From an uncultured bacterium (GTDB lineage: Bacteria; Electryoneota; Electryoneia; Electryoneales; Electryoneaceae), in assembly GCA_964648415.1 (NCBI GenBank), contig CAZYOC010000001.1, positions 1-53,394 of the forward strand: a stretch of DNA of 53,394 nt, read 5' to 3'. A model generated the notes under the pieces. It did no database searches and was not told the DNA's origin. It saw nothing but the letters and a program-made list of their open reading frames with translations. Of the stretch, positions 13,963 to 48,584 are shown piece by piece. The stretch's first letter is position 1, and the number at the start of each line of letters is the position of its first letter. The position numbers were made by a program, and so were the translations under genes.

Positions 13963-14000
13963 GCAAAGGACCAGCAAGGTTGCTGGTCCTTTGCTATTCC
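13963..14000 (+). terminator. candidate terminator after the lipoprotein gene
   Basis: Perfect 14-bp stem GCAAAGGACCAGCA / TGCTGGTCCTTTGC with an AGGT loop, 70 nt after the stop at 13892. The T tract (TATT) is weak. Confidence 0.5.
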
Positions 14001-14288
14001 CGGGAGTTGAACTGTGGCAGCTTCGGCCTCCGAGAGCCAAGAAGAGAGCTATTTCAAAGAAAGTGAATCCGTAAAACGTCCCTGTTGTTTTTAGCCTTTT
14101 TGCCGTCTGTGATGATTTACCTATTTCGAGGTTTCAGGCAGATTGGGAATGTATGCGCTCGCTTACAAACAATGTTTCACAACACGTTATGATTGCCTTT
14201 GGAGGTAGAAAAGATTTCCATTTCGATTTTTTTAGGGTTTTTGGGAATGAGTTTTTGTGCGGCATTTGGGATTTTTCTTGATTGACCC

Positions 14289-14310
14289 AAACACAAAAAA
14301 CACGAAAAGC
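14289..14310 (+). promoter_or_regulatory. two overlapping one-mismatch copies of the AAACACGAAAAAC motif upstream of the giant-gene operon
   Basis: AAACACAAAAAAC at 14289-14301 and AAACACGAAAAGC at 14298-14310, 174 nt before ATG 14484. Confidence 0.35.
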
Positions 14311-14364
14311 GGCGAATATGTCAATGTATCCAGTTGTAATCTTTATAGTTAATGTGAGCTTCAG

Positions 14365-14401
14365 CACTTGACTTTCAGTACCGGGTGACTACCTTGCTAT
14401 C
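14365..14401 (+). promoter_or_regulatory. promoter-like element CACTTGACT-N16-TACCTTGCTATC upstream of the 14484/15106 operon
   Basis: Paralogous in layout to 12868-12906. It lies 83 nt before ATG 14484. Confidence 0.3.
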
Positions 14402-14483
14402 AGGAAAAACCTTTTCAACTTCTCTTTGCGAGCGCTAGAGTTTCTTTCGATACAGCGTCCCTTGGGGATGCAGGAGGTGAAAG

Positions 14484-15053
14484 ATGGAACGTAAAGCGAA
14501 CTTTTTGCGACTGTTGCCGGGGCTGCTGATGTTTCTTGGGGGCACGCTGGACGTGGCCGCACGGCCCCCATTGGCGCACGAGGCGCAGGATCCTCGCGCG
14601 CAGGCGCATTCCGACCTGACCGTACTCTCGCATGAAGCCGGCATGACCATGGTGATCGGGGAGGGGCGAGGCCCGACGCCCGACCTGGCTCGCGGCGACG
14701 CCACCATTGTCGCGGAGGACCGTTTGATCGCGGCGCTCCACCAGCGGTTCCGTGAACTGGTTGAGCAAACCTCAAACGTTCTCGCCGGAGACAGCGGCGC
14801 ACTGAACGCGCTGGGTGGGTACGAGGACGCCTTCCAGGTGGAATCGATCCCTTACGAAGTCGTCAACACCAAGGTCTTCGAGGAACGCGGGCAGGTGGTA
14901 TGCTTGAGGCTGCTGGCTCTTTCCGACAGCAACATGGACCGCATCATTCTCGGGCACCTGCAGGGAGAAGACGCCTGGTACGCCCTGGTGAGATATTCCG
15001 AGCCCATCCGTGATCTGGAAGGGCGGGTTGATACGCAGGACAGCAACCATTGA
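14484..15053 (+). CDS. hypothetical exported protein immediately upstream of the giant gene
   Basis: GGAGG Shine-Dalgarno before ATG 14484. Signal-like N-terminus MERKANFLRLLPGLLMFLGGTLDVAA. GC3-rich codon pattern. It ends 52 nt before the giant ORF. Overlapping minus-strand ORFs lack ribosome-binding sites. Confidence 0.5.
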   Translation: MERKANFLRLLPGLLMFLGGTLDVAARPPLAHEAQDPRAQAHSDLTVLSHEAGMTMVIGEGRGPTPDLARGDATIVAEDRLIAALHQRFRELVEQTSNVLAGDSGALNALGGYEDAFQVESIPYEVVNTKVFEERGQVVCLRLLALSDSNMDRIILGHLQGEDAWYALVRYSEPIRDLEGRVDTQDSNH

Positions 15054-15105
15054 CAATCAATCCATGAGGGAGCATTCCAGCCGGATTTGACTGGAGGACA
15101 GGATC

Positions 15106-18100
15106 ATGAGAACATTGAGATTGATTTGTGTGTTGCTGTTGCTGACGGGCACAGCCTGGTCGTTTTCAGATGACTTTGAAACCGACCTGTCGCAATGGAC
15201 CGGGGACTGGGTCCGCACCAACGAGGCGGCCTACTCCGGGACGTGGTGTATTACGGAAAGCCCGGGCGGCGATTACGGTAACCTGGAATACAAGACCATC
15301 GAAATGGTTTCGGGCGAGGATCTCGACCAGGCGATCCTGGGCAGTGAGCTCACCTTCTGGGCGCGGTACGAGACGGAAGAACACTTTGATTTCTGGTATG
15401 TGGATATCTCGTTGGACGGCGGCCTTACCTGGAACCAGGAAGCTGCGTTTCATGGGACCGCCCTGACGTGGACACAATACACCGTTGACCTGGAAGGCTA
15501 CATTGGCAACAATGACGTCCGGGCGCGGTTCCGGTTCGACAGCGACCAGGCTGTGGTGGAGAACGGGGTCTGGATCGATAACGTCGAGATCACCATTACG
15601 GTTGATGATGTCAGCCCGCCCCTGGTGTTGCATGATGCCGTCCCGGTCGATTCCGCCATCGACGGTCAATATGACCCCGTCTTCACCGTCCGTGACCGAA
15701 GCGGCGTAGACTACGTCAACCTCTATTACAGGGTCAACGACAGCGACACCCTCCAGGCTCAGTTCGACTACCTCAACAACGACGATTACCATTTCGATAT
15801 TCCGCCCTACACACCGGGGTATCGTGTTACCTACTGGATAGAAGCCGGCGATAGCTGGACACCACAGAACGAGGACAGTTATGGTCCCTGGGAGTACTAT
15901 TGCGGGACCATGATCAGTTACGACAATGGCGTCAACGACGACGACATCATTGTCAACCAGGGGGCCGGCGGGCGGTTCGCCGTGGAATTCACCGACCCGG
16001 GCGACCCGGATCTCTACCTGGCGGCGGTGCTGTACGGGTTCTACCGCGATCCCGGCCGCACCATCGACAGTGTGGACTGTATTGTTTGGGACGACAACGC
16101 GGGCTGGCCGGGTAACCAGGTCATCGGAGAAATCCCCGTCTATCCGGAAAACACGCTGGCGACGCCGTACGCGGTGACACGGGTTGACATGGTTCCCTAC
16201 GACTATGAAATCAACGGGGACTTCCATGCCGGGTTCGAATACCGCTCCAATCGGCCCTACATCCTGGGCGACAACCCGGCGACACAGAACCGGTCCGAGC
16301 AGTACGACGGGGGCTGGTCCAACCTCAACCGCGATTTGCATATCCGGGCGCTGACCGGCGATATCTACGCCTATCTGCCCAACAACCCGACCGCGTTCCA
16401 ACTCGAGGAACCGGCCGACGAGGACACATCCGATACTGAAAACGTGACAGTCCGGTGGACTCAATCCACTGACAGCGACCCCAACGACTACATCCGGTAC
16501 GACCTGGAATGGTCGGTCAACTCCGACTTCTCGGCATCAAGTACTGTCACTATCACCGATACGTTCTACACCATCACCGGCCTGTCGGACAACACGACCT
16601 ATTACTGGCGGGTGAAATCCCGGGACGCGTTCCACAACGAAGAGTGGGCGGACCCGGGCGATACCGGCTACCAGTTTCATGTGTACACGCCGGAAAACCC
16701 CAACGTGTTCAACCTGACCAGCCCGGCCAATGCGTCGGTCTCCACCACCAGCGATGTGGTGTTGACCTGGGAGGCGGCTACGGACCCCGACCCGGACGAC
16801 GTGCTTACCTACGATGTCTATGTCAGCACCGATGCCGGAAATCTGGGGACGCCGGTGGCGACGGGCCTTTCCGCCACGACCTATACGTTCAGCGGCAACG
16901 ACGACACTCAGTACTGGTGGACGGTGCGGGCGGTGGACAACCACGGCCTCGAGACCCAGGCGATCCAGACCTGGCGCTTCAGCCTGGACATTGAAGATGC
17001 GCCCAATCCGTTTGATCTGGCCTCGCCGGCGGATGGTACCGTCTCGACGTCCACAGCGGTCACCCTTACCTGGAACGCCGCTACCGACCCGGACGGCGAC
17101 GCGCTGGTATATGACGTGTATGTCAGCACCGACGCCGGCAACCTGGGAACGCCCGTGGTCACCGGGATGACTCTGCTCAGCTACACTTTCAACGGGGTGG
17201 ATGACGAGACCTATTACTGGAGTGTGCGTGCGCGCGATCCGAGCAACAACTCCACCATGGCGAACCAGACCTGGAGTTTCTCCATTGAGGTGGAGGATCC
17301 GCCAGGGACGTTTGACCTGGCGTCACCCGCTAACGGGGCAGTTGAAACCGCCGCTACCGTAAACCTGACCTGGGACGCCTCGGTCGATCCCGACGGGGAT
17401 GCGGTGACGTATGACGTGTATGTCAGCACCAACGCCGGCAACCTGGGAACGCCCGACGCGACCGATCTGACGGTCACCAACTTTGCCTTCCCGGGCATTG
17501 ACGACCAGACCTATTACTGGACTGTGGTCGCCAAGGACCCCAACGGCAACGAGACCGACGCCAACCAGACCTGGTCTTTTTCCATCAACATCGGGCAGGC
17601 GCCTGACGCGTTCAGCCTGAGTTCACCAGCCGACGGGTATACGTCGGCATCGGCAACCGTGTCCCTCGCCTGGGACGCCACCACCGACCCCGATCCGGGG
17701 GATGATGTTACCTATTCGGTCTATGTCAGCACCAACGCCGGCAATCTCGGCGCGCCGGTGGCGACGGGCCTGACTGCGACGACCTACGACTTTACCGGCG
17801 TCAACAACAATACTTATTACTGGACCGTGAGGGCGGTGGATACCGACGGCCACAGTACGCAGGCGGACCAGACCTGGTCGTTTGATATCAGTGTCAACGC
17901 CGCGCCCCTGGCGTTCAACCTGACCAGTCCGGCCGACGGCAATACTGAAACCGCCACGGCAGTCGACCTTGATTGGGAGACGACTACCGATCCCGATGGC
18001 GACCCGTTGACGTACGATGTGTATGTCAGCCTGGACGCTTTTGACCTGGGAACGCCGGTGGCGACGGATCTCGGCGCCTCCAGCTACACCTACAACGGGA

Positions 18101-42100: not shown

Positions 42101-44400
42101 GCAACACCGAGGGAACCTGGGCGCAGGATACCCTGTCGATGCACGTGTACATCGTGGAGCCGCCCGACGCCTTCACCATGGCGTATCCGGGCGACGGCGA
42201 CACGGTGGACGCGGAAGAGGTGACGGTAACCTGGAACCGGGCAAGCGATCCCGACCCGGGCGACGCGGTGAGCTACGAGATCCAGTGGTCGGCGGATGCG
42301 GACTTCAGCACCGTCAACACCGGCACAACCAGTGACACGTTCTTCACCATCAGCGACCTGAGCGAGCTGATGGTCGCCTCGCAGCCTTGCGCTGACGGGG
42401 AGATCACGCTGCGCGGCGGCATGGAGCTGTTGCGTGACAGCCGTCGAGGCGGCAGTGTGGAGCTTGGTAGCGGACGCAGTCGCGGGCCGGTGGCGGAGCT
42501 GAACGAGCAGCCGAGCGAGGGTGCGACCGGCTTCTCCTCCAGGCAGCGCGAAAAAATCGGACGGACGGAGCGCAGCCGCGGCAAGGGCCGCGCCGCACTG
42601 AACAGCCTGACAGAAGAACGCGGCACAAATCTCGCACCTCACCGCCGTGGCAGCGGCCCGACCGGCGTTACGGGGCTGGATCAGCGTGTCGGCGGCACGG
42701 GCGAGCTGGACGAGCTGCCGGACAACAGCACCATCTACTGGCGGGTGCGGGCGATCGACAGCTTCGACAGCACCACCTGGGCGGACGGCGACAGCACCGG
42801 CCGAGCGTTTGACGTCATCCGCGCCGATGCGCCGAGCACCTTCAGCCTGCTGACCCCGCAGAACGGCAGCAGCCTGGATCAGAGCACGGCCACGCTGAGC
42901 TGGCAGACCTCGAACGATCCCGATCTGGACGGCGCCGTGCCCAGCTACCGTGTCTGGTGGGCCACCGATCCGCAGTTTGACAACGTCGATTCGGCGGACG
43001 TAAACGATACCGAACTGAACCTGGACAACCTGACCGACGACACCGTGTACTGGTGGAAAGTCCGCGCACTGGACGACAACACCGAGGGCACCATGTCGCG
43101 CCAGGTCTGGGCGTTCCAGGTCTTCATCCCCGAGCGGCCGACAGCGTTCAGCTTGCGGCAGCCGGCGAACAACGGTGTCGCCACCGAAGACAGCGTCACC
43201 CTGACCTGGACCCGCGCCAGTGATCCCGACCCGGGCGACAGCCTGCAGTATCGTGTCGAATACTCGACCGACAGCGCGTTCCCGGCCGGAGATACCGAGG
43301 TCGCCACGGTCCGCGACACCTTCCTGCTGATCAGCGGGCTGGAAGCGGACTACGACGACCGGACGCTCTACTGGCGGGTGCAGGCGGAAGACCTGTTCGG
43401 CATGACACGGTACGGCGAGCCGGGCGAGAATGGCCGCCAGTTTGACGTGCGCATCGCTCATCCGCCGCTGCCCTTCGAGCTGGTCAGTCCGTCGGCCAAG
43501 TCCATTATTGCGGACACCGTGGTCTCCTTTAGCTGGGAGAGCAGCAGTGATCCCGACATGGAAGACACGCTGCGGTACGAGCTGTGGGTCAGCACAACCA
43601 ACGACTTTGATGAGGACAACACCACGGTGTATCCGGACATCGCCAACGCGCAGTATGTGTTGACCGGCTTGCTGGACGACCGCGTGTACCACTGGAAAGT
43701 CAAGGCGGTGGACAGCAACACGGACGGTACCTGGTCCACCGATCAGGGCTCGTTCCAGACGTCTCGTCCCGAACCGCCGACCCCGTTCGACCTGGTGCGC
43801 GTCATGGACGGCGACACGTTGAACGCCGACGAGATCCGCAACCTGCTGTTCGAGTGGAAAGCGTCGCACGATCCCGATCCGGGTCAGGAGGTGAAGTACC
43901 TGCTGGTTCTCGACGAGGAGCAGGATTCCAGCGCGACAGAAGAAGCGATTCATCTGGAGCTGACCGTCCGCGAAGCGCCGTCGTTCGTCGTACCGGTGCG
44001 CAGCGAGCTGGAAGACACGTTCTGGGACGAGATGCTGCACTTCACTTGGTACGTGAAGGCGGTTTCGGGCGCGGATACGGTGGAGAGCGGCAGCCGGTTC
44101 AGCTTCCACGTGGCACCGAACCAGAAGGATGTCCCGACCACCTTCAGCATGGGCGCGCCTTATCCGAACCCGTGCAATCCGACCACGCAAGTGAAGGTCG
44201 GCTTGCCGAGCTCGGCGCATGTGCGCATTGAAGTCTTTGACATGCTGGGCCGGCGGGTGGACATCATTACCAGCCGGCAGTACGCCGCCGGTTATCACCA
44301 GTTCTTCTGGACGGCGGAAGGCGCGTCCGGGACGTACATCATGCGGGTGACGACATCCGCCGGCTGGTCGGACATTCGGAAGATTGTATTCTTGAAATAG
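15106..44400 (+). CDS. giant (9,764 aa) cell-surface protein: signal peptide, beta-sandwich head, 89 FN3-like modules, T9SS C-terminal sorting domain
   Basis: A single ORF with no stop for 29,295 nt. GGAGGA at 15093-15098 lies 7 nt before the ATG. Signal peptide MRTLRLICVLLLLTGTAWS. Repeating module: P.AF.L.SP..G......V.L.W....DPDGD.VTYDVYVS...G.LG..VA..L..T.Y.F.G.D..TYYWTV.A.D..GN.T...QTWSF. The C-terminus is YPNPCNPTTQVKVGLPSSAHVRIEVFDMLGRRV...GTYIMRV...IRKIVFLK. Confidence 0.92.
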   Translation: MRTLRLICVLLLLTGTAWSFSDDFETDLSQWTGDWVRTNEAAYSGTWCITESPGGDYGNLEYKTIEMVSGEDLDQAILGSELTFWARYETEEHFDFWYVDISLDGGLTWNQEAAFHGTALTWTQYTVDLEGYIGNNDVRARFRFDSDQAVVENGVWIDNVEITITVDDVSPPLVLHDAVPVDSAIDGQYDPVFTVRDRSGVDYVNLYYRVNDSDTLQAQFDYLNNDDYHFDIPPYTPGYRVTYWIEAGDSWTPQNEDSYGPWEYYCGTMISYDNGVNDDDIIVNQGAGGRFAVEFTDPGDPDLYLAAVLYGFYRDPGRTIDSVDCIVWDDNAGWPGNQVIGEIPVYPENTLATPYAVTRVDMVPYDYEINGDFHAGFEYRSNRPYILGDNPATQNRSEQYDGGWSNLNRDLHIRALTGDIYAYLPNNPTAFQLEEPADEDTSDTENVTVRWTQSTDSDPNDYIRYDLEWSVNSDFSASSTVTITDTFYTITGLSDNTTYYWRVKSRDAFHNEEWADPGDTGYQFHVYTPENPNVFNLTSPANASVSTTSDVVLTWEAATDPDPDDVLTYDVYVSTDAGNLGTPVATGLSATTYTFSGNDDTQYWWTVRAVDNHGLETQAIQTWRFSLDIEDAPNPFDLASPADGTVSTSTAVTLTWNAATDPDGDALVYDVYVSTDAGNLGTPVVTGMTLLSYTFNGVDDETYYWSVRARDPSNNSTMANQTWSFSIEVEDPPGTFDLASPANGAVETAATVNLTWDASVDPDGDAVTYDVYVSTNAGNLGTPDATDLTVTNFAFPGIDDQTYYWTVVAKDPNGNETDANQTWSFSINIGQAPDAFSLSSPADGYTSASATVSLAWDATTDPDPGDDVTYSVYVSTNAGNLGAPVATGLTATTYDFTGVNNNTYYWTVRAVDTDGHSTQADQTWSFDISVNAAPLAFNLTSPADGNTETATAVDLDWETTTDPDGDPLTYDVYVSLDAFDLGTPVATDLGASSYTYNGTNGNTYYWTVRAKDDNGNETSANQTWSFDISVNDPPTAFSLASPADATTSSTASVTLTWDASTDPEGGPITYNLYVSTDAGDLGTPVASGLTGTSNTFNGSDDTQYYWTVRAYDSAGNMTQADQTWSFDVYVEESPAAFNLAAPGDGSTMGATAVNLSWDASTDPDGDAVTYDVYVSTDAGNLGTPVATDLAGTSYTYNGTDLTTYYWTVYARDPNGNQTQAIETWSFDIDVDYAPDAFNLLTPADGTVSSTVAVPLTWESTTDADGETITYDVYVSTDAGNLGTPVATDLSATSYTFNGADNTTYYWTIRAKDGANETQANQTWSFSTDEEFAPDPFNLTSPSDFHIFNSTTTIALDWEATTDPDGDPVTYDVYVSTTQGDLGTLVADDIAVSNYDFSGSDGEEYWWTVFAFDDNGNSTQSNQTWKFSIFIQEVPGAFDLLDPTNGETVYTLDVPLSWEASVDPDPGDNVVYDVYVGTQIWNLGQVATGVTGTSYTYTGIDGNTYYWTVDARDAVGNTTTASQTWSFTIDYEPPPAAFNLTSPADGTVSGTNSVDLDWETTTDPDGGAITYDVYVSTDPGNMGAAVATGLNTTSYTFNGSDDTQYYWTVHALDPDGGETTANQTWGFSIYVEEAPGAFDLSSPADAATEPAATVSLAWDASVDPDGDAVTYDVYVSTDAGNLGTPVATDLSATTYDFTGSDNTTYYWTIQAKDPNGNATDANQTWSFDIFVDDPPDAFSLASPADGSTQGAATVSLTWNAATDPEGLAVTYDVYVSTDAGNLETPVTTDLAATTYDYTGSDNTTYYWTVHAKDPAGNETPASETRSFDIYVEEAPGAFDLTGPADGSTQTSLTVTMTWDASTDPDGDDVTYDVYASTDAGDVFSNQVASDLTAATYDFTGSDNTTYYWSVRAKDPNGNETDANQTWSFDIVYDDPPDAFSLDSPADASTSPTATVSLAWNSTTDPEGQDVTYDVYVSTDMGTLFDAPVESDLSVLTYDFAGLDDSTYYWTVRAKDENGNERQASETWTFDIYVEEAPDAFNLLSVADGTTSNTLTVDLAWESTSDPDGDNITYDVYVSTDAGDLGTPVAADLNVTIYTFTGLDDSTYYWTVFAKDPNGNETQATQTWSFDIYVEEAPDAFSLTSPADVSTQTSTTVTLTWNASADPDGDAVTYDVYVSTDAGNLGAPVATDLTVLTYDHTGSDDVTYYWTVVAKDPNGNETQASETWSFEIYIEEAPGAFDLASPADGTTSSTATVTLTWNASTDPDGDAVVYDVYVSTDAGDLGTPVATDLGALTWDFTGLDDSTYYWTVHAKDGNGNDVAANQTWSFDIYVEEAPDAFSLASPADASTQTSTTVTLAWNATTDPDGDAVTYDVYVSTDAGNLGTPVATDLTVLTYDHTGSDDQTYYWTVVAKDPNGNETPASETRSFDIYIEEAPQAFDLSSPADSYVSPVTNVALTWDATTDPDGDAVTYDVYVSTDAGNLGTPVATDLSALTYNYTGSDDQTYYWTVVAKDPNGNETSAASTWSFDIYIEEAPGAFDLASPADGSVQGATTVTLTWNTSTDPDGDAVTYDVYVSTDAGNVFGSPVATDLNATTYDFTGSDNQTYFWSVRAKDPNGSVTTANQTWDFEIYVEEAPGAFSLTSPADGSTLGAITATLEWGASVDPDGDAVTYDVYVSTDLGTLFDAPVATDLTVRSYDHTGSDNTTYHWAIIAKDPNGNETQSTQTWSFDIYVEEAPVAFDLTSPADATVSSTTTVTLNWNSTIDPDGDAVTYDVYVSTDAGNLGAPVATDLVASSYDYTGSDDQTYYWTVRAKDPNGNETQANQTWSFSIYVEEAPNAFSLTSPADATVSPAVDVTLNWNSTTDPDGDPVTYDLYVSTDAGNLGTPIASDITVTTYDFTGTDDETYYWTVVAKDGNGNETQATQTWSFSIYVEEAPNTFSLAGPASGTVSGAVDVALSWNSTTDPDGDAVTYDVYVSTDAGNMGTPVASDLTTTNYTFTGSDNTQYWWTVRAKDPNGNETQASQTWSFSIYVEEAPNPFTLANPPDGSTHESENVTVTWNLTTDPDGDPIYYDIYISTDPGDMGTPVVDSLPGPSYTYTGNDLTTYYWTVVAYDDNGNETQANQTWSFFIDIEHEPGEFDLAGPNSGWISPSATVTLEWETSVDPDGDPVTYDVFLGPTAGSLTETVSDLTDTTYEFTGNDDSQYWWTVQASDDNANEVWADNTWNFSIYVEEAPGAFSLSSPADGHTAPDTLVALSWTASVDPDGDPVSYDVYVSTDPGDLGMPVASDVTGTTYTFDGEDDTQYYWTVTAKDNNSNSTPVGETRSFSIYREEAPQPFTLVSPANGAVMGTSTVTLTWNTTTDPDGDAVTYDVYVSTDAGTLFDTPTATDLTSATYDFSGSDDTRYHWGVVAKDPNGNETQSTNTRYFDIYVEEAPGAFTLTSPANGQVMGATSVSLQWSASVDPDGDPVVYDVYVSTDAGDLGTPVAGGISATQWTFNGSDDVTYYWSVTARDNHSNSTPVGETRSFSIYVEESPLAFNLTSPANGTISGSATVTLNWAATSDPDGDDVTYDVYVSTDAGNMGTPVASDLTVNNYIFNGNDDTRYYWTVRAKDPNGNETQANQTWWFETYVEEAPSTFSLVSPDSGNVMGATAVTLQWNASTDPDGDPVRYDVYVSTDAGNLGTPVATNLTGTSYTYNGSDDTQYWWTVRARDNNGNATNASETWSFDIYVEEPPSAFSLVNPADGTVSPTTAVDLSWNTSTDPDGDDVTYDVYVSTDAGNLGTPVASDLTTTSYTFNGSDDTSYYWTVRAKDPNGNETQATQTWQFEIYVEEGPDAFSLSSPADGTVSGSATVSLVWNTTTDPDGDAVTYDVYAGTDAGDLLSSPVATDLTVANYDFTGLDDSTYTWTVIAKDPNGNETQASETWTFSIYVEEPPPAFSLLTPTDASTEPATDVELTWEPAPDPDGDDVTYDVFVSLDPGDLGTAVATGLTTTSHTFSGDDDSTYTWTVRANDTNGNSTDATETWTFDIHVEEAPLAFNMISPADGAVSPNAAVTLQWQNTTDPDGDTVVFDVYVSHDAGDLGTPVATDLSTTSYTYTGDDDSTYYWSVFARDGNGSETQASNGIWEFSIYVEEAPGAFSLLSPVNGAIRSTATVNLQWTASVDPDGDAVTYDIFVSTDPGNMGTPVQTGVTATSWTFNGNDDTQYWWTVRANDPNGNQTMATNTRTFSIYVEEAPEPFSLLSPADGTVSGTDEVTLIWENTIEPDGDPVEYDLYVSTDLNNLGTPIADNITDTTYSFTGSDDQTYYWTVVAYDDQNNDTPADQTWSFEIYIEEPPSAFALATPDSGIVSPDTVVTLTWDRSTDPDGDALTYDVYVSTDMNNLGTPVAENLTDTSYTFTGDDDTQYWWTVEVDDGNGNVVQADQTWSFDIDVEDVPDTFTLLSPADGSTSPTATVDLTWQSTSDLDSDPITYDLYVSTDLNNLGAPVQTGLTDTTASFTGSDDTAYWWTVIADDGNGNTVAATDTFGFDIYVEEYPNAFALLSPDSGHVSPGTDVTLIWTSTSDPDGDAVSYDLFISTDMNNLGAAVATDLTDTSYAFTGNDDTEYWWTVVAGDVNGNETAAPDTFSFSIYVEEGPGAFTLATPADGSVEPDTDVLLIWDTSTDPDGDAVTYDLYLANDVGGLATPYQTGLTDTFYTFTGTDNTSRLWTVVAGDPNGNTTAAADTFSFDIYVEEPPAAFDLVAPDSGWTSPWLDVDLSWDYSSDPDGDVLFYDVYVSTDQGNPGAPVMTDLTDSTWTFAAVHGNTYWWTVEVDDGNGNVVQASQTWSFEVDTSLAGQAPLAFDLASPDSGATIATEDVLLTWFPTTDPNGDDIVYDVYVHQAQGQLLTTPVATDLTNTSYTYTGVHDTPYWWTIIARDPIGNQTQANQTWRFHVHTANPGNAPGAFSLTGPDSGWVSPSTDVLLSWEESIDADGDDVLYDVFVSQTAGVIGTRVASNLNGTSYIHSGGNGDTLYWTVQAKDPSGNYTQANETWSYSIDVSGADQPPTAFGLAGPSDGSVQPVTDVLLSWEPSSDPEGMDVSYEVYASTVQGFLGSRVASDLTGLSYTFTGSNNETYYWTIIAYDEAGNSTQSDETWSFAVDTSQQNNAPAAFSLVSPDSGWTSPSADVLLSWESTTDPDGDNVTYDVYLSTSSSDIGTRVAANLTGTSYTHTGADGDTLFWTVRAVDTYGNQTQSSETWSFDIDLGNANQPPAAFTLASPSDGYVSPSTDVLMTWETSSDPEGGAVTYDVYVSTVPGFLGTRVAHDLSGASHTFTGSDATSYYWTVIAADADGNTTQSDVTWAFEIDLTQANNPPNAFSLAAPDSGWTSPSTDVLLSWENATDPDGDNVTYDVYISSTSSDIGTRVASGLTGTSYSHSGSDGDTLFWTVRAVDDNNNQTQSTESWSFDIDLGNANQPPAAFTLASPSDGYVSPATDVLMTWEASSDPEGGAVTYDVYVSTIAGFPGTRVAHDVSGTSHTYSGSDGETYYWTVIASDADGNTTQSDVTRSFEIDLTQANNAPEAFSLVAPDSGWTSPSTDVLLSWESATDPDGDAVTYDLYISTTSADIGTRIANGLTGTSYSYTGSDGDTLFWTIRAVDAFGNQTQSTESWSFDIDLGNANQPPAAFTLASPSDGYVSPATDVLMTWQGTTDPEGGAVTYDVYVSTTPGFLGTRVANDLNATNYTFTGSDAATYYWTVIAADASGNTTQSTDTWSFEIDLGNADSAPTAFSLVAPDSGWTSPNTDVLLSWQASSDPDGGDVTYDLYTSATSADIGTRIASGLTGTSYSYSASDGDTLFWTIRAVDAGNNQTQSTQSWSFTIDISVANDPPAAFTLVSPADGFVSPATDVLLTWNTTTDPEGAGVTYDVYASTTPGFLGTRIADNLAGTSYTFTGSDGETYYWTVIASDPSGNFTQADETWSFEIDTPVSNNAPNAFSLTAPDSGWASPSADVVLSWEETTDPDGEEVSYEVYISTVQGFIGTRVASGLTGATYIHTGVTGETYFWTVRAVDPNGDATQSTETWAFSIDTDNANDPPVAFTLVSPLNGHVSPSPDVLLTWNGATDPEGGDVEYDVYVSTVPGFLGARVAAGLSGTSYSYTGVDGETYYWTVVAEDVDGNRTQADETWSFSIDESQATTPPTAFSLTSPADGFASTNSLVIMTWNESTDPDGGNVSYDVYLSTVDGFIGVRMATGLSLPTYAFNGTPGETYWWTVRAVDDSGEETQSNETRSFSIDNTVTGQPPAAFSLTAPDSGHVSPVETVTLSWDVTTDPDGDAVTYDVYVSDDPVDLGTADVTGLAGTSWDFTGTDGETYYWTVRASDGNGNDTQAGETWSFSIDASLPGDPPNAFDLASPADGSTEFYQDVQLVWNSTDDPDGDAVTYDVYVSDVDGFLGSRIAQDLTDTTATFTGVDGTQYWWTVQAVDATGRSTQANQTWSFTIDVNYPVESFSLLAPDSGYVSGNEDVLLSWEHAVDPEGEDVTYDVYVSTDPGDLGTPVADDLAGASYSFTGTDGQTYWWTVEAWDGDVAVTPADQTWSFSIDTGTVPPGNDPPNAFSLAGPDSGFVSPVTDVLLSWEASADPDGDAVTYDVYLSLSESFLGSRIASGLTETNYTCSSSDGDQWYWTIVASDEYDATTQSSETWSFSIDTGAVPPDNDPPNSFTLASPDSGFISPEQDVLLTWNQAIDPDGDAVTYEVYVSMVQGDLGTRVAANLTGTSYSYTGTDGALHWWTVRALDSNNQATFADQTWRFGVNTGSTPPGNDPPNAFSLASPSDGFVSPVTDVLLTWNQATDPDGDDVTYEVYLSADPAFVGTRMASGLTGTSWNFSGTDDEEWYWTIRALDTEDQSRLSTETWSFSIDTGTVPPGNDPPNSFALVAPDSGHVSPDFSVNLSWETAVDPDDDEVTYDVFVSSVQGELGARVAAELTGTSFEYTGIDGQQYWWTVKAYDSNNLLTDADQTWSFSIDAAQANQPPLAFDLTSPADGYQSPMNSVDLAWQTTTDPEGDPVSYDVYISTVQGFPGTRFAANLTNTNYTFDGVNGETYYWTVIAADESNNETQSTTTRSFSINTDVAGDPPVAFDLASPDSGYVSVETDVDLTWNATSDPDGGAVTYDVYVSDDPAYLGVQVAQNLSGTSYMHTGADGDTLYWTVRAYDEDGMWTQASQTWSFSIDSDLPGSAPAAFDLAAPDNNTVSPVETVTLSWNATSDPDGGDVTYEVFVSTQLGFLGTRLASNLGATSYEFAGSDGDQYWWTIRAVDEDGMWTQANQTWTFSIDATQASQPPLAFNLAGPDSGYTSPDTDVLLSWFDSADPDGEDVEYDVYVSTVQGFLGTRVAGDLAAASYTYTGSDGETYWWTVLAVDGDGMQTQANQTWSFSVDTSVPGNAPNAFSLDSPIDGSVETSTAVDLAWDATTDPDGDDVTYDVYVSQVLGFPGTRIAANLTDLTTTFNGQDGETYYWMVYAKDPDGHQTQANQTWSFSIDAEQVGEAPLAFDLAAPDSGFVAPETMVDLSWNATTDPDGDDVSYAVYVSTTQGVFGAPLASGLTATSYSFTGTNGQAYWWKIIASDTNNNDTESTQSWSFSIDTSVPGTPPLAFELTGPDSGMTFGQEEVSLSWQTTTDPDGGAVGYDVYVSTVQGELGTRVASDLGGAGYEFAGTDGETYHWTVRAVDEDGMWTQADQTWSFSIDIAVPGDAPGAFDLATPADGSTEGGVDVDLTWNASTDPDGDDVTYEVYVSEIEGFLGQRVASDLTVTTWTFTGVDNGEYWWTVHASDPSGHVTAANQTWGFDIFVQEPPLPFSLVSPDSGYQSADTLVTLSWQTTSDPDGDDVLYDVYVSGDPGDLGDAVVTDLAGTSYEYDAERDTTLYWTVFANDGAGNETQASETWSFSIDAEAVGNPPAAFSLAAPDSGSLSPYTDVDLSWFESTDPDGDAVTYDVYISTVEGFLGQRVAQDLTVTSYTYTGVEGETYWWTIKAVDVNGNQTQSTETWSFEIDTDVPGFPPVAFGLTGPDSGYVSAVEDVLLSWAASSDPEGGAVTYDVYVSTDPADLGTRVAQDLTGTSYEFTGSDAQTYYWTVRAMDVDGLWTQADESWSFSIDTTVPGDAPDAFSLLTPADNFQSATLDVAMTWEASSDPDGGAVTYDVYVSTDPLFQGTRVASDLAGTSYLYTGVNGQEYYWTVRAVDEDGMWTESSETWSFSINTGTVPPQNEAPLAFDLAGPDSGYVSLITDVDLSWFEAVDPDGDEVSYDVYISPVEGFLGELVAEDLEGASYSFAGTDGELYWWTVIATDENGLWTQATQQWSFSVEETVIGSEPNAFSLVSPADGVTLNDLAVTLQWNSTTDPDGDDVTYEVYASTVDGFLGTRLAAGLTITSYDLTASDDTQYWWTIRAVDEDGNWTQANETWTFSIFVEDPPGPFTLAAPDSGDTVRTTTAELSWFESVDPDGDEVTYSLYVSTDPANMGAAVTTDHAPTSYAYDGTDGETYWWTVTATDENANSTAATDTFSFTIDATVIGNPPEAFSLAAPDSGDVLPYTQIDLSWFESFDQDGQDVTYSVYVSTVEGYLGTRMAANLTVTSYTFTGQDGETYWWTVRAVDEDGNVTQADETWSVSIDLSNFNEPPTPVVLASPQDGSLVGFEEVDLTWFSSTDPDGGDVLYDVYVSLTEDNLGTRYGENLADTLYTFDGVDEVTYYWTVVARDEDHNQTSSENWDFTIHTAGVPSPFALLSPDDDAHIDDDTVTVAWSESVDPDNGDPITYHLEVSTDAQFQPYVTYTTADLQYTIANFMGLAARINGMKDEQPQPREDGRVDFRPSGSFGSVRVSGLGVASPGGGDELDELPDDLTLYWRVRAYDNDNLYTYGDPGESGRSFTTDQVEAPEAFSLLSPSEGDTVWSSETLMSWEAATDPDPYDTPHYDIWLDDSSDMSGASLAADSIAADSFTMTGLLDDQTYWWTVRATDSNTEGTWAQDTLSMHVYIVEPPDAFTMAYPGDGDTVDAEEVTVTWNRASDPDPGDAVSYEIQWSADADFSTVNTGTTSDTFFTISDLSELMVASQPCADGEITLRGGMELLRDSRRGGSVELGSGRSRGPVAELNEQPSEGATGFSSRQREKIGRTERSRGKGRAALNSLTEERGTNLAPHRRGSGPTGVTGLDQRVGGTGELDELPDNSTIYWRVRAIDSFDSTTWADGDSTGRAFDVIRADAPSTFSLLTPQNGSSLDQSTATLSWQTSNDPDLDGAVPSYRVWWATDPQFDNVDSADVNDTELNLDNLTDDTVYWWKVRALDDNTEGTMSRQVWAFQVFIPERPTAFSLRQPANNGVATEDSVTLTWTRASDPDPGDSLQYRVEYSTDSAFPAGDTEVATVRDTFLLISGLEADYDDRTLYWRVQAEDLFGMTRYGEPGENGRQFDVRIAHPPLPFELVSPSAKSIIADTVVSFSWESSSDPDMEDTLRYELWVSTTNDFDEDNTTVYPDIANAQYVLTGLLDDRVYHWKVKAVDSNTDGTWSTDQGSFQTSRPEPPTPFDLVRVMDGDTLNADEIRNLLFEWKASHDPDPGQEVKYLLVLDEEQDSSATEEAIHLELTVREAPSFVVPVRSELEDTFWDEMLHFTWYVKAVSGADTVESGSRFSFHVAPNQKDVPTTFSMGAPYPNPCNPTTQVKVGLPSSAHVRIEVFDMLGRRVDIITSRQYAAGYHQFFWTAEGASGTYIMRVTTSAGWSDIRKIVFLK
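15163..16380 (+). other. N-terminal non-repeat head of the giant protein (jelly-roll MAM/LamG-like domain plus further beta-sandwich regions)
   Basis: FSDDFETDLSQWTGDW...YSGTWCITESPGG...TFWARYETEEHFDFWYVDISLDGGLTWN...RARFRFDSDQAVVENGVWIDNVEI has the pattern of MAM/choice-of-anchor-type beta-sandwich domains. This call is by eye only. Confidence 0.5.
16696..29319 (+). repeat. type A FN3-like module array: 42 modules of ~300 nt (100 aa), linker ..SF.IYVEE
   Basis: Counted module by module from the translation: 12,624 nt / 42 = 300.6 nt per unit. Confidence 0.85.
29320..41382 (+). repeat. type B FN3-like module array: 39 modules of ~309 nt (103-106 aa), longer linker ..SFSID(x6-9)
   Basis: Counted from the translation: 12,063 nt / 39 = 309.3 nt per unit. 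SPDSG(W/Y/F)xSP and GFLGTR variants distinguish it from type A. Confidence 0.85.
41383..44130 (+). repeat. type C divergent FN3-like modules (7), two carrying large Arg/Gly-rich insertions
   Basis: These modules keep the L.W....DPD and (L/V)YW(R/K)V.A.D landmarks but are much more diverged. They resemble module 1 (16384-16695) at the other end of the array. Confidence 0.7.
44131..44397 (+). other. T9SS C-terminal sorting domain of the giant protein
   Basis: VPTTFSMGAPYPNPCNPTTQVKVGLPSSAHVRIEVFDMLGRRVDIITSRQYAAGYHQFFWTAEGASGTYIMRVTTSAGWSDIRKIVFLK aligns by eye with the CTDs of the CDSs at 5011, 11423 and 50309. Confidence 0.8.
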
Positions 44401-44473
44401 AAGGGACAGCGGTGCCACGGCTTGATTCCGTGGCAGGGCAGTCGTGGCGCCGTCAACGTCCCGGGGAGGACAC

Positions 44474-45619
44474 GTGAAACACGTGCTCAAAACACTTCTT
44501 TTGCTGGGCCTGCTGCTTGGTGCGAGCGCAGCGCCCGCTCAACAGTCTTTCGTGATCGACGTGGTCACCGAAGGCGCCGGCATCTCGCCGCCGGTCAGCG
44601 AGCTGCTCATCGAGGACCCGTTCCCGATGTTCAGCCTGCTTGATCTGCACATGCTGGAACGCTACGACAGGGACTACTTCGGCATGTGGGACCGGGCGGA
44701 GGGCTATCTGCTCAGCGTACACTCGAATACCGTGGCCACCATGTCGCGTTCCTACAGCGCCTGGCAGTTCCCGGCCTACCTGTTCTACAAGGACTGGGTG
44801 TTCGGGCTCACGCTGCCGTTGGTGGAGGGACGCCGGTTCTCATATCGCGGCGACCGGCAGGGAGCGTCCGGGTTCGGCGACATCGCCATGACGCTGGGGT
44901 ACTCCTACCCGTTGCCGGTGGACATCAGCTATGCGGCGGCCATGACCATCAAGTTTCCGACAGCCAACAGCGGAGCCTACCGCAGCCGCTTGAACACGCC
45001 ACTGGGCACCGGCGCGCCGGACCTGATTTTCAGCATCAACCTGCAGCATACCATGACCTTCGGCGATGTACAGGTGCTGGGGCAGTGGAGGGGCAACGGG
45101 GACCGGACCTACGAGCTGATCGCCCATGACCCCAACGACCCCACGCATATCGTGGAGACAGAATACGATGTGCGCAACGGCAACGCCCTGCTGGTGAAAG
45201 CCCTGTACAACCACCGCTTCATCGGGCTGAACTTCTTTGATTACGTGGACCTGGATTTCGACGCTTACAGCGGTCTGCACCTGAAGCACCTCTACGCCGC
45301 CGGGTATACCGAGTGGACCAAACATGACAACCAGACCGGCGGGTTCTCGTCGAGTTTCCCCGGACACCCCTCGCTTACCACGCTGGAGTGGTTCATAGGC
45401 GCCAACTACTTCTACGCTCCCTTCACCGGGCGCGCGCAGCTTGTGCTGCCGCTGGGTGTCAACCACGGCGGCCGAACCGCCGAAAACTACCGAGATGTGG
45501 AGTTTCGCCTGGGCCTCACCTGGTTCTGGGCGATGGATATGAGCCCGCGTCAACTGAGGAACCACCAGTTGAGAGAGCGGATCAAGGAACGTCAATATCG
45601 TGAACGGTCACGCCGCTAA
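44474..45619 (+). CDS. outer-membrane beta-barrel protein (MetA-pathway/transporter-like family resemblance)
   Basis: GGAGGA at 44465-44470. The GTG 44474 start (or 44483/44444) gives the signal peptide (V)KHVLKTLLLLGLLLGASAAPAQQ. GFGD and PTANSG...LGTGAPD motifs and strand-like periodicity are present. The last strand is LGLTWFW, followed by a basic tail. Only 16 nt separate it from the next gene. Confidence 0.7.
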   Translation: MKHVLKTLLLLGLLLGASAAPAQQSFVIDVVTEGAGISPPVSELLIEDPFPMFSLLDLHMLERYDRDYFGMWDRAEGYLLSVHSNTVATMSRSYSAWQFPAYLFYKDWVFGLTLPLVEGRRFSYRGDRQGASGFGDIAMTLGYSYPLPVDISYAAAMTIKFPTANSGAYRSRLNTPLGTGAPDLIFSINLQHTMTFGDVQVLGQWRGNGDRTYELIAHDPNDPTHIVETEYDVRNGNALLVKALYNHRFIGLNFFDYVDLDFDAYSGLHLKHLYAAGYTEWTKHDNQTGGFSSSFPGHPSLTTLEWFIGANYFYAPFTGRAQLVLPLGVNHGGRTAENYRDVEFRLGLTWFWAMDMSPRQLRNHQLRERIKERQYRERSRR

Positions 45620-45634
45620 GGCAGGGAGGAGATC

Positions 45635-48013
45635 ATGATGCGATTCGAGCGCGAAGCGATCCTCAGCCTGCCCCTTGCGGAGGCGATTCGGATCACGCTA
45701 TGGCTGATGCTGGCGGCGGCGCTGCTGCTGCTGGCCACATCCTGCGACAAGGACGGGCCGGTGGAAGTCACCTATGAAACCGGCGGAGTGTCGCTGGAGT
45801 TTGTCCTTCCCGAGGATGCGCCCACTATCCAGGGCAGTATCTCCGCCTGGGTCCGGGTGACACCGCACCGCATGGCGGCCTGGGAGGAAGAACTCATCAT
45901 CACCGACCGTCACGCCAACCGGCCGATCGAAGTCCCGGTGGGAGTGCCCTGTGTCATTACCGTAACGCTGGACTATGAGGGTGTGATGTACCGCGGTTCA
46001 GTCGCCACGCCCGCACTGAATCCCGGCAGCTTCTACACCGCCGGCATCCAGATGCTGGAGCCGGGCGATGAGCCCGCATTCAGTATCCTGACGCCGGATA
46101 CGGTAGCCGCCGGCCGGGAGATCTCACTGGCGCTGTACGGCGAAGGCGCACACAAGATGCGTATCGGCAACGCCATGGCGTTGCCGGACAGCGTGGCGTC
46201 CGACTCGTTGATTCCCGACTCCATCCTGGCTGATACGGTGGACTGGGGCGCGGGCTGGGTGGCGTACGACTCGCTGCCCGACTGGACCCTGACCACCGGC
46301 GCGGACGCGAAAATCGTCTATGCGCAGATCGCTTATCTGAACGGCGATACATCTGCCGTGGTCTCCGATACGATCGGTATTGCGGCGCTGAACGGAACGG
46401 CGGAAATTGCGAATGGCGCCGAGACTACAGCTTCAAAAGACGTCGTTGTCCGTTTATCCTCGAACTACGCGACAGAGATGAAGGTTGTCGCCGTGGGTGG
46501 TGACACAACCATGATGTTAACGGGCAAGCGCGGATCGACCCGGACCGTCGCAAGCGACAGCATTGAGTGGATACCCTTTGAGGATCGCGTGCGAGTTGAA
46601 TTGCCGGATGGACCCGGCGAAAAATGGGTGGAGATCCTTCTGCGGGATGAGTTTCTAGTCGAGTATACCGTACGAGACACCATCGCCACGGCGGAAATCG
46701 AGGGTAGTGTGGCGTTTGCTGCTGAGGGCATGTTCGTCAATGAGTTGTCGCAGGTGGTGACCATTGACGCCAGCGGAGCGTCCCGGATGGCCGTCTCGGT
46801 GTCCGGCGACAGCACAAATCTGACCTGGCGTACGCTTGCGGATCAACATACGGTCGGTTTCTCGCCGCATGATGGTTGGCGTACGGTCTATGTCTGGTTG
46901 CAGAATGATTTTACACAGTTCGGTCCCCTGACCGATTCCATCGGAATTGACCGTTCCGCCGCTATTGATTCATTTGCCTGGAGCGCGTCGACGCTGAACA
47001 ACATTGCGCCCGGCGATACGCTCTATTTTTCCCTGTGGGCCGATTCGGCGTTCTACGGGCCGGAGACCCATGGCAGCGCGTATGTGACCGTGGCAGGGCT
47101 TCCGGACACGATTGATCTGGCGGAAGAGGGCGCCGGCGTTTACAGTGCGTACTATCCGATCTACAACACCACACCGCAGCTGGACAGCGCCGCCGTGACC
47201 GCGTACTTCACCGACCGCGCGGGGAATGTGGCTGAGCCGGTGGTGGCCGATTCGCTTGTCAGCGGCGGTGGGTTGACCACCGGGACCGTGAGGAGCTTCG
47301 AGTTGGGTAACACCGGCAATAACATCCAGATGGTCTGGATCGCGCCGGGCAGCTACGAGATGGGCGCGTTGCCCAACGAGGCGGGGGCGGATCTGGATGA
47401 AACGCCACGGCATACGGTGACCTTCCGCTACGGGTTCTGGATCGCCCGCACCGAGCTCACGCAGTCGCAGTGGGAGGCGGTGATGGGGAGCGGCAACGTG
47501 TTCCCCGAGTTCCCCGGTCCTAGCCGGCCTGTAGAGACGGTGAGCTTCAACGAAGCGCAGCTGATGATCTCCGTGATCAACAGCTCGGAAATGGAAAGCG
47601 TCTGGCGGTTGCCCACCGAAGCGGAGTGGGAATACGCCGCCCGCGCCGGAAGTACCGAGCGGTTCCCGTGGGGTACGGATACGGGCTACAACCAGCTTGG
47701 CGGCTACGCGTGGTTCAACGGCAACAGCAGCAACACCACGCACAACGTGGGCGGCAGGGAGGCCAACCCCTGGGGCCTGGAAGACATGTTCGGCAACGTG
47801 TGGGAGTGGTGCCTGGACTGGCATCACGACAGCTACACGGGCGCACCCGATGACGGCTCGCCCTGGTTGTCTCCTTCGGGAAGCGAACGTGTGATTCGCG
47901 GCGGAAGCTGGAACGATCCGGGCGGGGAGTTGCGCAGCGCCAGCCGTGGCAGCGCCGATCCCGACAGTCGCAGCAGCAGTATCGGTTTCCGGCTGGTGCG
48001 AATGGAGCGTTAG
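45635..48013 (+). CDS. lipoprotein with C-terminal FGE-sulfatase (SUMF1/GldJ/GldK-like) domain
   Basis: GGAGGAG Shine-Dalgarno. N-terminal hydrophobic segment ending LLLLATSC (lipobox-like). The C-terminal ~250 aa read MVWIAPGSYEMG...DETPRHTVTF...WRLPTEAEWEYAARAG...NPWGLEDMFGNVWEWC...RVIRGGSW...IGFRLV, which are classic FGE-sulfatase family motifs. Confidence 0.85.
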   Translation: MMRFEREAILSLPLAEAIRITLWLMLAAALLLLATSCDKDGPVEVTYETGGVSLEFVLPEDAPTIQGSISAWVRVTPHRMAAWEEELIITDRHANRPIEVPVGVPCVITVTLDYEGVMYRGSVATPALNPGSFYTAGIQMLEPGDEPAFSILTPDTVAAGREISLALYGEGAHKMRIGNAMALPDSVASDSLIPDSILADTVDWGAGWVAYDSLPDWTLTTGADAKIVYAQIAYLNGDTSAVVSDTIGIAALNGTAEIANGAETTASKDVVVRLSSNYATEMKVVAVGGDTTMMLTGKRGSTRTVASDSIEWIPFEDRVRVELPDGPGEKWVEILLRDEFLVEYTVRDTIATAEIEGSVAFAAEGMFVNELSQVVTIDASGASRMAVSVSGDSTNLTWRTLADQHTVGFSPHDGWRTVYVWLQNDFTQFGPLTDSIGIDRSAAIDSFAWSASTLNNIAPGDTLYFSLWADSAFYGPETHGSAYVTVAGLPDTIDLAEEGAGVYSAYYPIYNTTPQLDSAAVTAYFTDRAGNVAEPVVADSLVSGGGLTTGTVRSFELGNTGNNIQMVWIAPGSYEMGALPNEAGADLDETPRHTVTFRYGFWIARTELTQSQWEAVMGSGNVFPEFPGPSRPVETVSFNEAQLMISVINSSEMESVWRLPTEAEWEYAARAGSTERFPWGTDTGYNQLGGYAWFNGNSSNTTHNVGGREANPWGLEDMFGNVWEWCLDWHHDSYTGAPDDGSPWLSPSGSERVIRGGSWNDPGGELRSASRGSADPDSRSSSIGFRLVRMER

Positions 48014-48042
48014 AGTAATTCTCGAATGAAATGTCCCATGAT

Positions 48043-48070
48043 GTCATTCCTGCGAAAGCAGGAATCCAGA
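48043..48070. repeat. REP-like hairpin family 1, second copy
   Basis: Same 27-nt sequence as 3408-3434. It translates to the VIPAKAGIQ artefact at the start of ORF 48031. Confidence 0.85.
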
Positions 48071-48312
48071 ATAAACAAGTACTTAAGAATCTTGGTATGT
48101 TCGATTCTTTGCAAGAACCACTCTATGTTGTCAGGCAAGGGTTTACGTGGACCGACAGGGTAAAAAGATTAGGGGAGTTTAAGCTTTCGCTCGGCGGTTT
48201 TCCGGGTTGTAGTTTTCCGTACATTGTGGGGCAAACAAGCGGGGCGTGCAGTCCAGAAGTCATGGCTGACGTACCCCCTACCAACAACCAACGAGAGTTC
48301 TCGGAGGATACG

Positions 48313-48519
48313 ATGGCTTACAGGATCAACGACAACTGCATCAACTGCGCGGCGTGCGAAGACGAGTGTCCGGTGGAAGCGATCAGCGAAGGCGACGATA
48401 TTTATATCATCGACGAAGACGTCTGCGTTGAGTGCGAAGGCTACCACGACGAGCCGCAGTGCATCGAAGTCTGCCCCGTGCAGGAAGAGGATAACCCCTG
48501 CATCGTCAAGGCCGACTAA
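48313..48519 (+). CDS. 2x[4Fe-4S] ferredoxin, YfhL-like
   Basis: GGAGGA 4 nt before ATG 48313. 68 aa reading MAYRINDNCINCAACEDECP...CVECEGYHDEPQCIEVCP (CxxCxxCxxxCP plus CxxCx8CxxxCP), collinear with E. coli YfhL. The longer ORF from 48031 begins inside a REP element and is rejected. Confidence 0.9.
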   Translation: MAYRINDNCINCAACEDECPVEAISEGDDIYIIDEDVCVECEGYHDEPQCIEVCPVQEEDNPCIVKAD

Positions 48520-48541
48520 GCCTGAGCAGAACGATTGTATG

Positions 48542-48584
48542 AAGCGCCCTGTGGGATAAATGCCCGCAGGGCGCTTTCTTGTTT
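48542..48584 (+). terminator. intrinsic terminator after the ferredoxin gene
   Basis: 14-bp stem (one G-U pair) AAGCGCCCTGTGGG / CCCGCAGGGCGCTT with a 7-nt loop, followed by TTCTTGTTT. It lies between convergent genes. Confidence 0.75.

Follow-up and report, generated by a model that had tools for sequence, protein, structure and literature searches.

A FapF-related barrel and a modular lipoprotein encoded behind a giant type IX adhesin: probably an autonomous cassette rather than a dedicated helper

Do an outer-membrane beta-barrel and a lipoprotein that are encoded directly behind a giant adhesin serve that adhesin? The question is raised by a 53,394-nucleotide stretch of DNA from an uncultured bacterium of the family Electryoneaceae (contig CAZYOC010000001.1; hereafter, the window), which carries, one after another, the genes of a small predicted exported protein, a giant type IX secretion system (T9SS) cargo, a barrel, and a lipoprotein whose C-terminal domain has the fold of the formylglycine-generating enzyme (FGE). 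A preliminary description of this locus had proposed that these genes form a self-contained module for export, anchoring or tracking of the giant protein, analogous to SprB, SprF and GldJ or GldK. Our analysis points instead to two separable units, a reading to which we give a probability of about 0.55: the giant T9SS adhesin with its small exported protein, and an autonomous cassette in which a FapF-like barrel is paired with a modular lipoprotein and which would act in surface display. The cassette is probably not a dedicated helper of the giant.

The barrel (44474..45619, + strand; 381 aa) belongs to a rare family. Exhaustive HMMER searching among 1.84 billion sequences yielded 37 distant representatives of about 340 aa, and a family hidden Markov model (HMM) from which the window's lineage had been left out scored the window barrel at 131 bits (E 1e-41). 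Alignment of the 37 revealed a set of shared motifs, namely an N-terminal TEG...T(E/D)L..DP segment, ASGxGD, KLPTGD, YLVPLGTGSTD, YDIxNGN and a terminal aromatic beta-signal, and the window barrel carries both the conserved N-terminal TEG...DP segment and the loop motif PTA...PLGTG. Scans against Pfam and NCBIfam gave the window barrel no match at E ≤ 1, including PF11751 (PorP_SprF), TIGR03519 and PF13557, the last of which is matched by 8 of the 37 family members (best E 1.2e-8). PF11751 is matched weakly by two of the 37 (E 3e-4), TIGR03519 by one (E 0.0085) and the FapF model NF058560 by one (E 0.0026). Membership of the PorP/SprF family was rejected on these scores.

The relationship of the family to FapF and to the COG4313 channels, both of them 12-stranded barrels, is seen in both fold and profile comparisons. 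An AlphaFold2 model of the window barrel built from the 37-sequence alignment reached a predicted local distance difference test score (pLDDT) of 82, with an N-terminal region of low confidence (pLDDT 49-74); two-sequence input had given a pLDDT of 30. When the model was compared to the PDB using Foldseek, FapF ranked at the top (E 3e-10; target-normalised TM-score, or TMt, 0.6-0.7), and the 12-stranded EspP barrel and the COG4313 channel 4RL8 (TMt 0.60) were also recovered. Among PDB sequences, the family profile matched FapF at E 0.0018 and 4RL8 at E 0.028, and a profile made from two barrel sequences returned only noise. Additionally, the window motif FPTA...PLGTG and its family counterpart KLPTGD...PLGTGS are twin PTG-type motifs flanking a loop, as in FapF, where two conserved PTG motifs flank the loop between strands beta5 and beta6 (PMC5557850). 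Taken by profile and predicted fold, the barrel is a distant relative of COG4313/PF13557 that falls below the Pfam threshold for membership, and its closest characterised relative is the polypeptide transporter FapF. The initial impression that the barrel was MetA-like and not PorP-like is borne out by the fold and the family profile, while the two models suggested as a check (PF11751 and PF13557) both fail to match the window barrel itself.

The surroundings of the barrel genes were compared across loci from GTDB genomes (L006-L017), metagenome contigs (L018-L030) and single-protein look-ups (L004, L005, L031 and the contig of protein P0006), together with the one closely related genome (L001). 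Of about 16 independent lineages, about 15 have a lipoprotein gene directly behind the barrel gene and on its strand, at distances ranging from an 11-nt overlap to a 62-nt gap. Among the loci with enough sequence, the pair is present in L001, L004, L005, L007-L018, L020-L023, L025-L027, L031 and the P0006 contig, and it is also present in L006, where the lipoprotein gene has an in-frame stop. The hosts are Cloacimonadota, Zixibacteria, LCP-89, Bacteroidales, Rikenellaceae, Balneolales and unclassified metagenome-assembled genomes (MAGs); two host MAGs are labelled Armatimonadota, yet are 85% identical to Cloacimonadota ones.

In the partner lipoproteins, about 105 aa from the lipidated cysteine onward form a shared N-terminal domain, while the C-terminal payloads that follow it differ from lineage to lineage. 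The payload is an FGE fold in L011, a PKD domain plus an FGE fold in L009 and L021, two or three fn3-like repeats in L005, L010 and L012, one fn3-like repeat plus leucine-rich repeats in L017 and its relatives, Fib_succ_major in L013 and L015, and unassigned sequence in L014, L022 and L031; the L016 partner, at 160 aa, has none. Domains of these types typically occur in extracellular proteins. Pairing, N-domain conservation and the swapping of payloads are all directly visible in the loci, and the conserved unit is the barrel plus the lipoprotein N-domain. Because fn3, leucine-rich, PKD and Fib_succ_major domains replace it elsewhere, the FGE domain is one interchangeable payload, and for the same reason its resemblance to GldJ and GldK is incidental.

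The lineages also differ from the window in lacking a giant. Outside the window's lineage, the genes within 10 kb of the cassette encode no protein of more than about 900 aa, except in L011, and a giant gene is adjacent to the cassette only in these two cases. In L011, a Cloacimonadota MAG, an ORF (open reading frame) of at least 2,787 aa (12632-20993, + strand), with a beta-helix/NosD region and 11 PKD domains, comes directly after the barrel/FGE-lipoprotein pair and runs off the contig end; it lies downstream of the cassette and is of a different domain type from the window giant.

Two groups of loci depart from the common arrangement. The sole partner-less branch (L028 and L029) also has barrels without the N-terminal TEG segment, which hints that this segment may be a partner-specific element of the barrel. 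In this high-GC branch (L028 3310-6173; L029 5874-7302), the barrel is followed by a 111-aa ORF, a Fur/Zur-like regulator and a His-rich ZnuA-like binding protein, hinting at a metal-related channel role. Separately, in some closely related Cloacimonadota-type contigs the partner is broken by an in-frame TAG (L006 11036-12004) or truncated to 156-230 aa (L008 6503-6973, L018 1500-2192 and L020 1503-2195), while the relatives L009 and L021 keep PKD and FGE domains; this suggests payload decay or assembly errors.

The window lipoprotein (45635..48013, + strand; 792 aa) has the layout of a member of this partner family: an adjacent gene on the same strand, 15 nt behind the barrel, with a lipobox (LLATSC, Cys37) and an N-domain of about 105 aa starting at the lipidated cysteine. 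The N-domain spans aa 37-140 (nt 45743-46054) and is followed by an unassigned region (aa 141-560) and the FGE domain (aa 565-789; nt 47327-48001). A BLASTP comparison of the window lipoprotein with the partner in L005 gave no significant match, and their relationship is visible only with an N-domain profile. An N-domain HMM built without the window's lineage aligns to window aa 37-140, from the cysteine onward, at 22.1 bits; among the 306 proteins scored, the partners reached 68-127 bits, the window and L001 lipoproteins 22-24 bits, and the best of the other approximately 280 ORFs less than 5 bits. The residues after the lipobox cysteine are rich in K and D/E (CDKDG, CEKNQ, CSEND and similar).

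The FGE-sulfatase fold was identified with high significance (PF03781, aa 565-789; E 8e-48, 163.7 bits compared to a gathering cutoff of 23.3), and together with the lipobox it bears out the description of the protein as an FGE-fold lipoprotein. The proposed kinship with gliding and T9SS lipoproteins fared differently. Against TIGR03525, TIGR03524 and TIGR03530, the lipoprotein scores 92.4, 24.7 and 18.6 bits, where the equivalog cutoffs are 350, 458 and 383, so that all of the GldJ, GldK and PorK models suggested for comparison with 45635-48013 remain far below cutoff. Identity as GldK/PorK (92 bits against 350) or GldJ (25 against 458) was rejected, PvdO being closer at 133.6 bits. The nearest solved relatives of the FGE domain are PvdO (1e-31), the Treponema denticola variable protein Tvp1 (3e-28) and PorK (1e-15). 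Catalytic FGE has a pair of active-site cysteines after an RGGS(W/F/Y) motif (Cys336 and Cys341 in human FGE). In the window, the C-terminal RGGSW... segment RGGSWNDPGGELRSASRGSADPDSRSSSIGFRLVRMER contains no cysteine, and the sole cysteine of the domain lies in NVWEWC; a role as a catalytic formylglycine-generating enzyme was rejected for lack of cysteine in this segment.

If the cassette is autonomous, what does its position behind the giant signify? All four ORFs were confirmed on the + strand, and the spacing first described is accurate apart from one nucleotide (52, 73 and 15 nt; the last had been given as 16). The barrel starts at a GTG codon at 44474, preceded by a GGAGGA ribosome-binding site, within a mechanical ORF that runs from 44444. 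A word-indexed search of 5.8 billion proteins returned one relative of the barrel (68% identity) and one of the small protein (59%), both on a single 5.4-Mb contig, L001; a window-centred barrel alignment searched against metagenome contigs found no relatives, and none closer than the 68%-identical protein was recovered. In L001 the small protein comes first, then the giant (10,339 aa), the barrel, the FGE lipoprotein and the ferredoxin, the last annotated as 67 aa and following the cassette at a gap of 203 nt. The four-gene order is therefore conserved in the sole genome with an orthologue of the giant, although it is not specific: the window and L001 are collinear across three more genes upstream as well as the ferredoxin downstream. 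As this collinearity reaches into the flanking genes, the four-gene order is uninformative on a functional module.

Separate promoters or terminators at the junctions had been named as grounds for rejecting the proposal, and none of consensus type was detected: simple scans gave no promoter- or terminator-like site beyond the level of shuffled sequence. The first strong intrinsic terminator downstream of the cassette lies at 48541-48577, after the ferredoxin gene. Between the giant stop codon and the ribosome-binding site of the barrel there is, however, a GC-rich stem-loop (44403..44462, + strand), identified by folding energy and by alignment with L001. The hairpin at this position had been described as weak and without a T-tract. 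It indeed has no U-tract, and so is not a canonical intrinsic terminator, but it is not weak (-36.4 kcal/mol, z -2.7), and an equivalent stem occupies the same place in the related genome (-34.6 kcal/mol, z -4.6). A conserved stem of about 20 bp right after a 29-kb gene is plausible as a processing, stabilising or attenuating element, and its strength and conservation in the two sequences argue for at least partial decoupling of transcription between giant and barrel.

The giant itself (15106..44400, + strand; 9,764 aa) resembles other cargo of the T9SS in all but size. A signal peptide (signal-like N-terminus MRTLRLICVLLLLTGTAWS) and a head of about 430 aa are followed by 89 fn3-like repeats in tandem, each about 100 aa long (aa 431-9669; nt 16396-44112), which match fn3, SusE and Ig_Rha78A_N. 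Its C-terminal domain (CTD; aa ~9686-9759, nt 44161-44382) scores 34.1 bits against TIGR04183 (cutoff 23), as the type-A appearance noted earlier would predict, and 22.3 bits against PF18962, under that model's cutoff of 27. With TIGR04183 above its cutoff and a Sec signal, the giant is, apart from its great size, unremarkable as type-A T9SS cargo. The small protein upstream (14484..15053, + strand; 189 aa), an ORF with an N-terminal hydrophobic signal-like segment, has no match in Pfam or NCBIfam. Its one homologue among the 5.8 billion proteins, in the related genome, also sits immediately upstream of the giant, and none of the other barrel loci examined has this protein.

Taken together, we favour two units that happen to be neighbours. 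The giant would be exported by the general T9SS through its type-A CTD, with the small lineage-specific exported protein encoded just upstream of it. In the cassette, the N-domain (about 105 aa from the lipidated cysteine) would be the part working with the barrel, and the payload in the window would consist of the unassigned stretch (about 420 aa) and an FGE/C-type-lectin-like fold without cysteines in its C-terminal segment. The payloads are of a kind typical for extracellular binding, and among characterised barrels the closest transports polypeptides; on these grounds, the barrel may dock or help translocate its partner lipoprotein, so that the payload would be shown at the cell surface as a binding module. 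The adjacency of giant and cassette would most likely be a lineage-specific juxtaposition of surface-protein genes, with the conserved stem-loop between the two units.

Several observations weigh against this reading. The N-domain match of the window lipoprotein is modest (22 bits), and the residues after its lipidated cysteine and those of its relatives bear only a loose resemblance to the lipoprotein export signal of Bacteroidota, K-(D/E)2 (PMC5080379). Giants flank the cassette in 2 of about 16 lineages, which is more than a naive expectation would allow, and the repeat family of the window giant is the payload of partners in four other lineages while being absent from the other approximately 270 ORFs of the loci. 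The gap between giant and barrel is just 73 nt, with no recognisable promoter. The barrel also ends, after its beta-signal LGLTWFW, in a tail of about 27 aa (aa 356-381; 45539-45619) formed by a highly basic predicted helix, SPRQLRNHQLRERIKERQYRERSRR; only the window barrel and one orthologue have it, and the other 35 family members stop at the beta-signal. This tail is the best remaining hint of lineage adaptation and could reflect a link to the giant. Finally, we infer barrel-lipoprotein contact, surface exposure and a binding function from genomics alone. A more far-reaching version of the two-unit reading, which we put forward tentatively, is that the cassette is a small, hitherto unrecognised FapF-related, T9SS-independent two-partner system for lipoprotein display, devoted to the export or surface anchoring of a single cognate lipoprotein and spread across phyla of the Fibrobacterota-Chlorobiota-Bacteroidota (FCB) type. 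Its N-terminal docking domain would be fixed and its payloads freely exchanged, and in the window's lineage it may also couple to the giant through the basic tail and a shared transcription context.

How do other explanations compare? That the barrel and FGE-fold lipoprotein serve the giant as a dedicated module for its export, anchoring or tracking, analogous to SprB-SprF-GldJ/K, seems improbable to us. The same four-gene order does occur in the only related genome, but synteny there extends into unrelated flanking genes, and the short gaps without a consensus terminator have to be set against the strong conserved hairpin between giant and barrel. The protein of at least 2,787 aa (beta-helix, PKD) directly after the L011 cassette and the recurrence of the giant's repeat type as a partner payload elsewhere both speak for such a module, whereas about 14 lineages carry the cassette with no giant nearby. 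The lineage-specific C-tail of the barrel recalls the periplasmic C-tail by which SprF attaches to GldK (PMC12635249), yet a disulfide of the SprF-GldK type is impossible, as the window barrel has no cysteine. Furthermore, the barrel is not PorP/SprF, the lipoprotein lies far under the GldK and GldJ cutoffs and its FGE domain is replaceable, and the giant has a type-A CTD, where PorP-like carriers serve type-B cargo (PMC9143113). With the pair recurring in about 15 further lineages and a giant adjacent only in L011, the module originally envisaged is largely unsupported, and the analogy with GldJ and GldK falls with the cutoffs, the replaceable FGE domain and the cysteine-free barrel.

Alternatively, the barrel could be a channel through which small or hydrophobic molecules are taken up passively, like the COG4313 channel Pput2725, and the lipoprotein its surface lid for capturing substrate, much as SusD is for SusC or BtuG for BtuB, with the variable domain setting the ligand. 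Sequence and fold similarity to COG4313 fit such a role, as do payloads of binding-type domains, and pairs of a barrel and a surface lipoprotein for uptake are common in Bacteroidota (PMC10404256); the partner-less branch beside Zur- and ZnuA-like genes suggests a solute channel for at least that branch. However, the best structural and profile match is the polypeptide transporter FapF and not COG4313, leucine-rich, PKD and fn3 payloads, or none at all in the 160-aa partner of L016, would be odd for capture lids, and genes of catabolism or transport do not accompany the cassette consistently in the loci. We regard this explanation as rather unlikely. We give very little credence to a third, in which the pair is a diverged PorP-PorK-like paralogue serving as an accessory part of the T9SS machinery. 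In Porphyromonas gingivalis the porP-porK order is also that of a barrel gene followed by the gene of an FGE-fold lipoprotein. The weak PF11751 (2/37, E 3e-4) and TIGR03519 (one member, E 0.0085) matches in the family, the presence of PorK among the solved FGE-domain relatives (1e-15) and the fact that all host lineages are T9SS-bearing FCB-type bacteria are consistent with this origin, but no porL-, porM- or porN-like genes follow the pair, the FGE domain is nearer to PvdO and Tvp1 than to PorK and is missing from most partner lipoproteins, and the window barrel has no PorP match at E ≤ 1.

We therefore return to the two-unit reading, in which the real discovery is the autonomous cassette rather than a giant module. 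Literature searches found no description of such a barrel-lipoprotein cassette, which is not proof that none exists, and we consider the cassette undescribed. Pfam and NCBIfam have no model for the barrel branch or for the N-domain of the lipoprotein, and the genes are therefore currently annotated as hypothetical. How lipoproteins of the FCB group are placed at the surface is still largely unresolved; if our reading is true, the cassette is a tractable candidate route, and the FapF/COG4313 barrel family is extended to a new kind of client.

The remainder of the window provides some context for this locus. Three more proteins with a T9SS sorting domain (Por_Secre_tail or FlgD_ig) are encoded on the - strand at 5011-8316, 11423-12412 and 50309-52984. 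With at least three such proteins besides the giant, the organism uses the T9SS heavily, and in a neighbourhood so rich in T9SS cargo, it is unsurprising to find the cassette beside one. Upstream of the small protein, a lipoprotein (12948-13892, + strand; lipobox MTIGC) with an SdrD_B/CarboxypepD_reg-like domain occupies the same position in the related genome and belongs to the wider collinearity. The many long antisense ORFs over the giant gene (15166-44490, - strand), which reach 1,502 aa (e.g., 39982-44490), are most likely artefacts of GC-rich repetitive coding sequence. Downstream of the cassette and outside the system, profile matches and the terminator scan identify a ferredoxin and the first strong terminator (48313..48577, + strand); within 48031-48577 (+ strand), the 162-aa ORF probably encodes, from a start at 48313 (M95), a YfhL/FdxA-like ferredoxin that is about 68 aa long and has two [4Fe-4S] clusters. 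Near the other end, ribosomal protein S16 (1607-2530, + strand; PF00886, aa 9-67) carries a repeat tail of about 220 aa rich in K, A, E and D, with units like KADEKKADEAKKEDKKEDKPSDDATKDAKPEAKAEEKKEDKPAEA, and is far longer than usual S16. Rfam and tRNA scans of the window gave no match.

Among characterised systems, the closest to the cassette is FapF, the functional-amyloid transporter of Pseudomonas (PDB 5O65, 5O67 and 5O68). FapF is the best structural and PDB profile match, shares the twin PTG-type motifs and, like the window barrel, has an N-terminal extension and is encoded beside the protein that it presumably handles. The two are nonetheless only 12-14% identical, and none of the fap operon genes is found in the window or related loci. 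FapF also has a helical plug and a periplasmic coiled coil; no N-terminal coiled coil is evident in the window barrel, whose model is of low confidence in that region (pLDDT 49-74). The partner here is a lipoprotein with folded payloads and not a secreted amyloid subunit, and the hosts are FCB-type bacteria instead of Pseudomonas. The COG4313/PF13557 (Phenol_MetA_deg) channels, such as Pput2725 (PDB 4RL8), are likewise related, by the PF13557 matches of 8 of the 37 family members, the TMt of 0.60 and the profile E-value of 0.028, but the window barrel has no PF13557 match at E ≤ 1 and no aromatic-catabolism context. COG4313 channels are not known to need a cognate lipoprotein.

The likeness to SprB-SprF-GldK/GldJ of Flavobacterium johnsoniae is superficial. 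There, too, a giant repetitive T9SS adhesin is followed by a barrel, an FGE-fold lipoprotein is involved, and SprF, like the window barrel, has a C-terminal tail past the last strand. In that system, the carrier is of the PorP family and SprB is type-B cargo, PorP-like carriers serving type-B CTDs while type-A cargo is anchored through anionic lipopolysaccharide and makes no use of a PorP-like partner (PMC9143113), and a Cys-X-Cys motif in the SprF tail is disulfide-bonded to Cys343 of GldK (PMC12635249). Here, the CTD is type A, the lipoprotein falls below the GldK and GldJ cutoffs, and the non-PorP barrel, both in the window and in its orthologue P0002, contains zero cysteines; an SprF-type carrier tethered to GldK was rejected on the missing cysteine and the CTD type. 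The case is a caution: the row of adhesin, barrel and FGE lipoprotein resembles SprB/SprF/GldK, yet every testable defining feature failed. Finally, the cassette can be set beside Slam (type XI secretion), SusCD and BtuBG. Profile scans of the window, the barrel family and the partner proteins gave no match to DUF560, TonB-dependent or SusD families, and Slam membership was rejected as no sequence relationship was detected; the window barrel is also much smaller, and its partner's conserved module is N-terminal, starting at the lipid anchor. What the cassette shares with these systems is its organisation, a barrel gene beside the gene of a lipoprotein presented at the surface (in the cassette, presumably so), with one conserved module joined to varied remainders.

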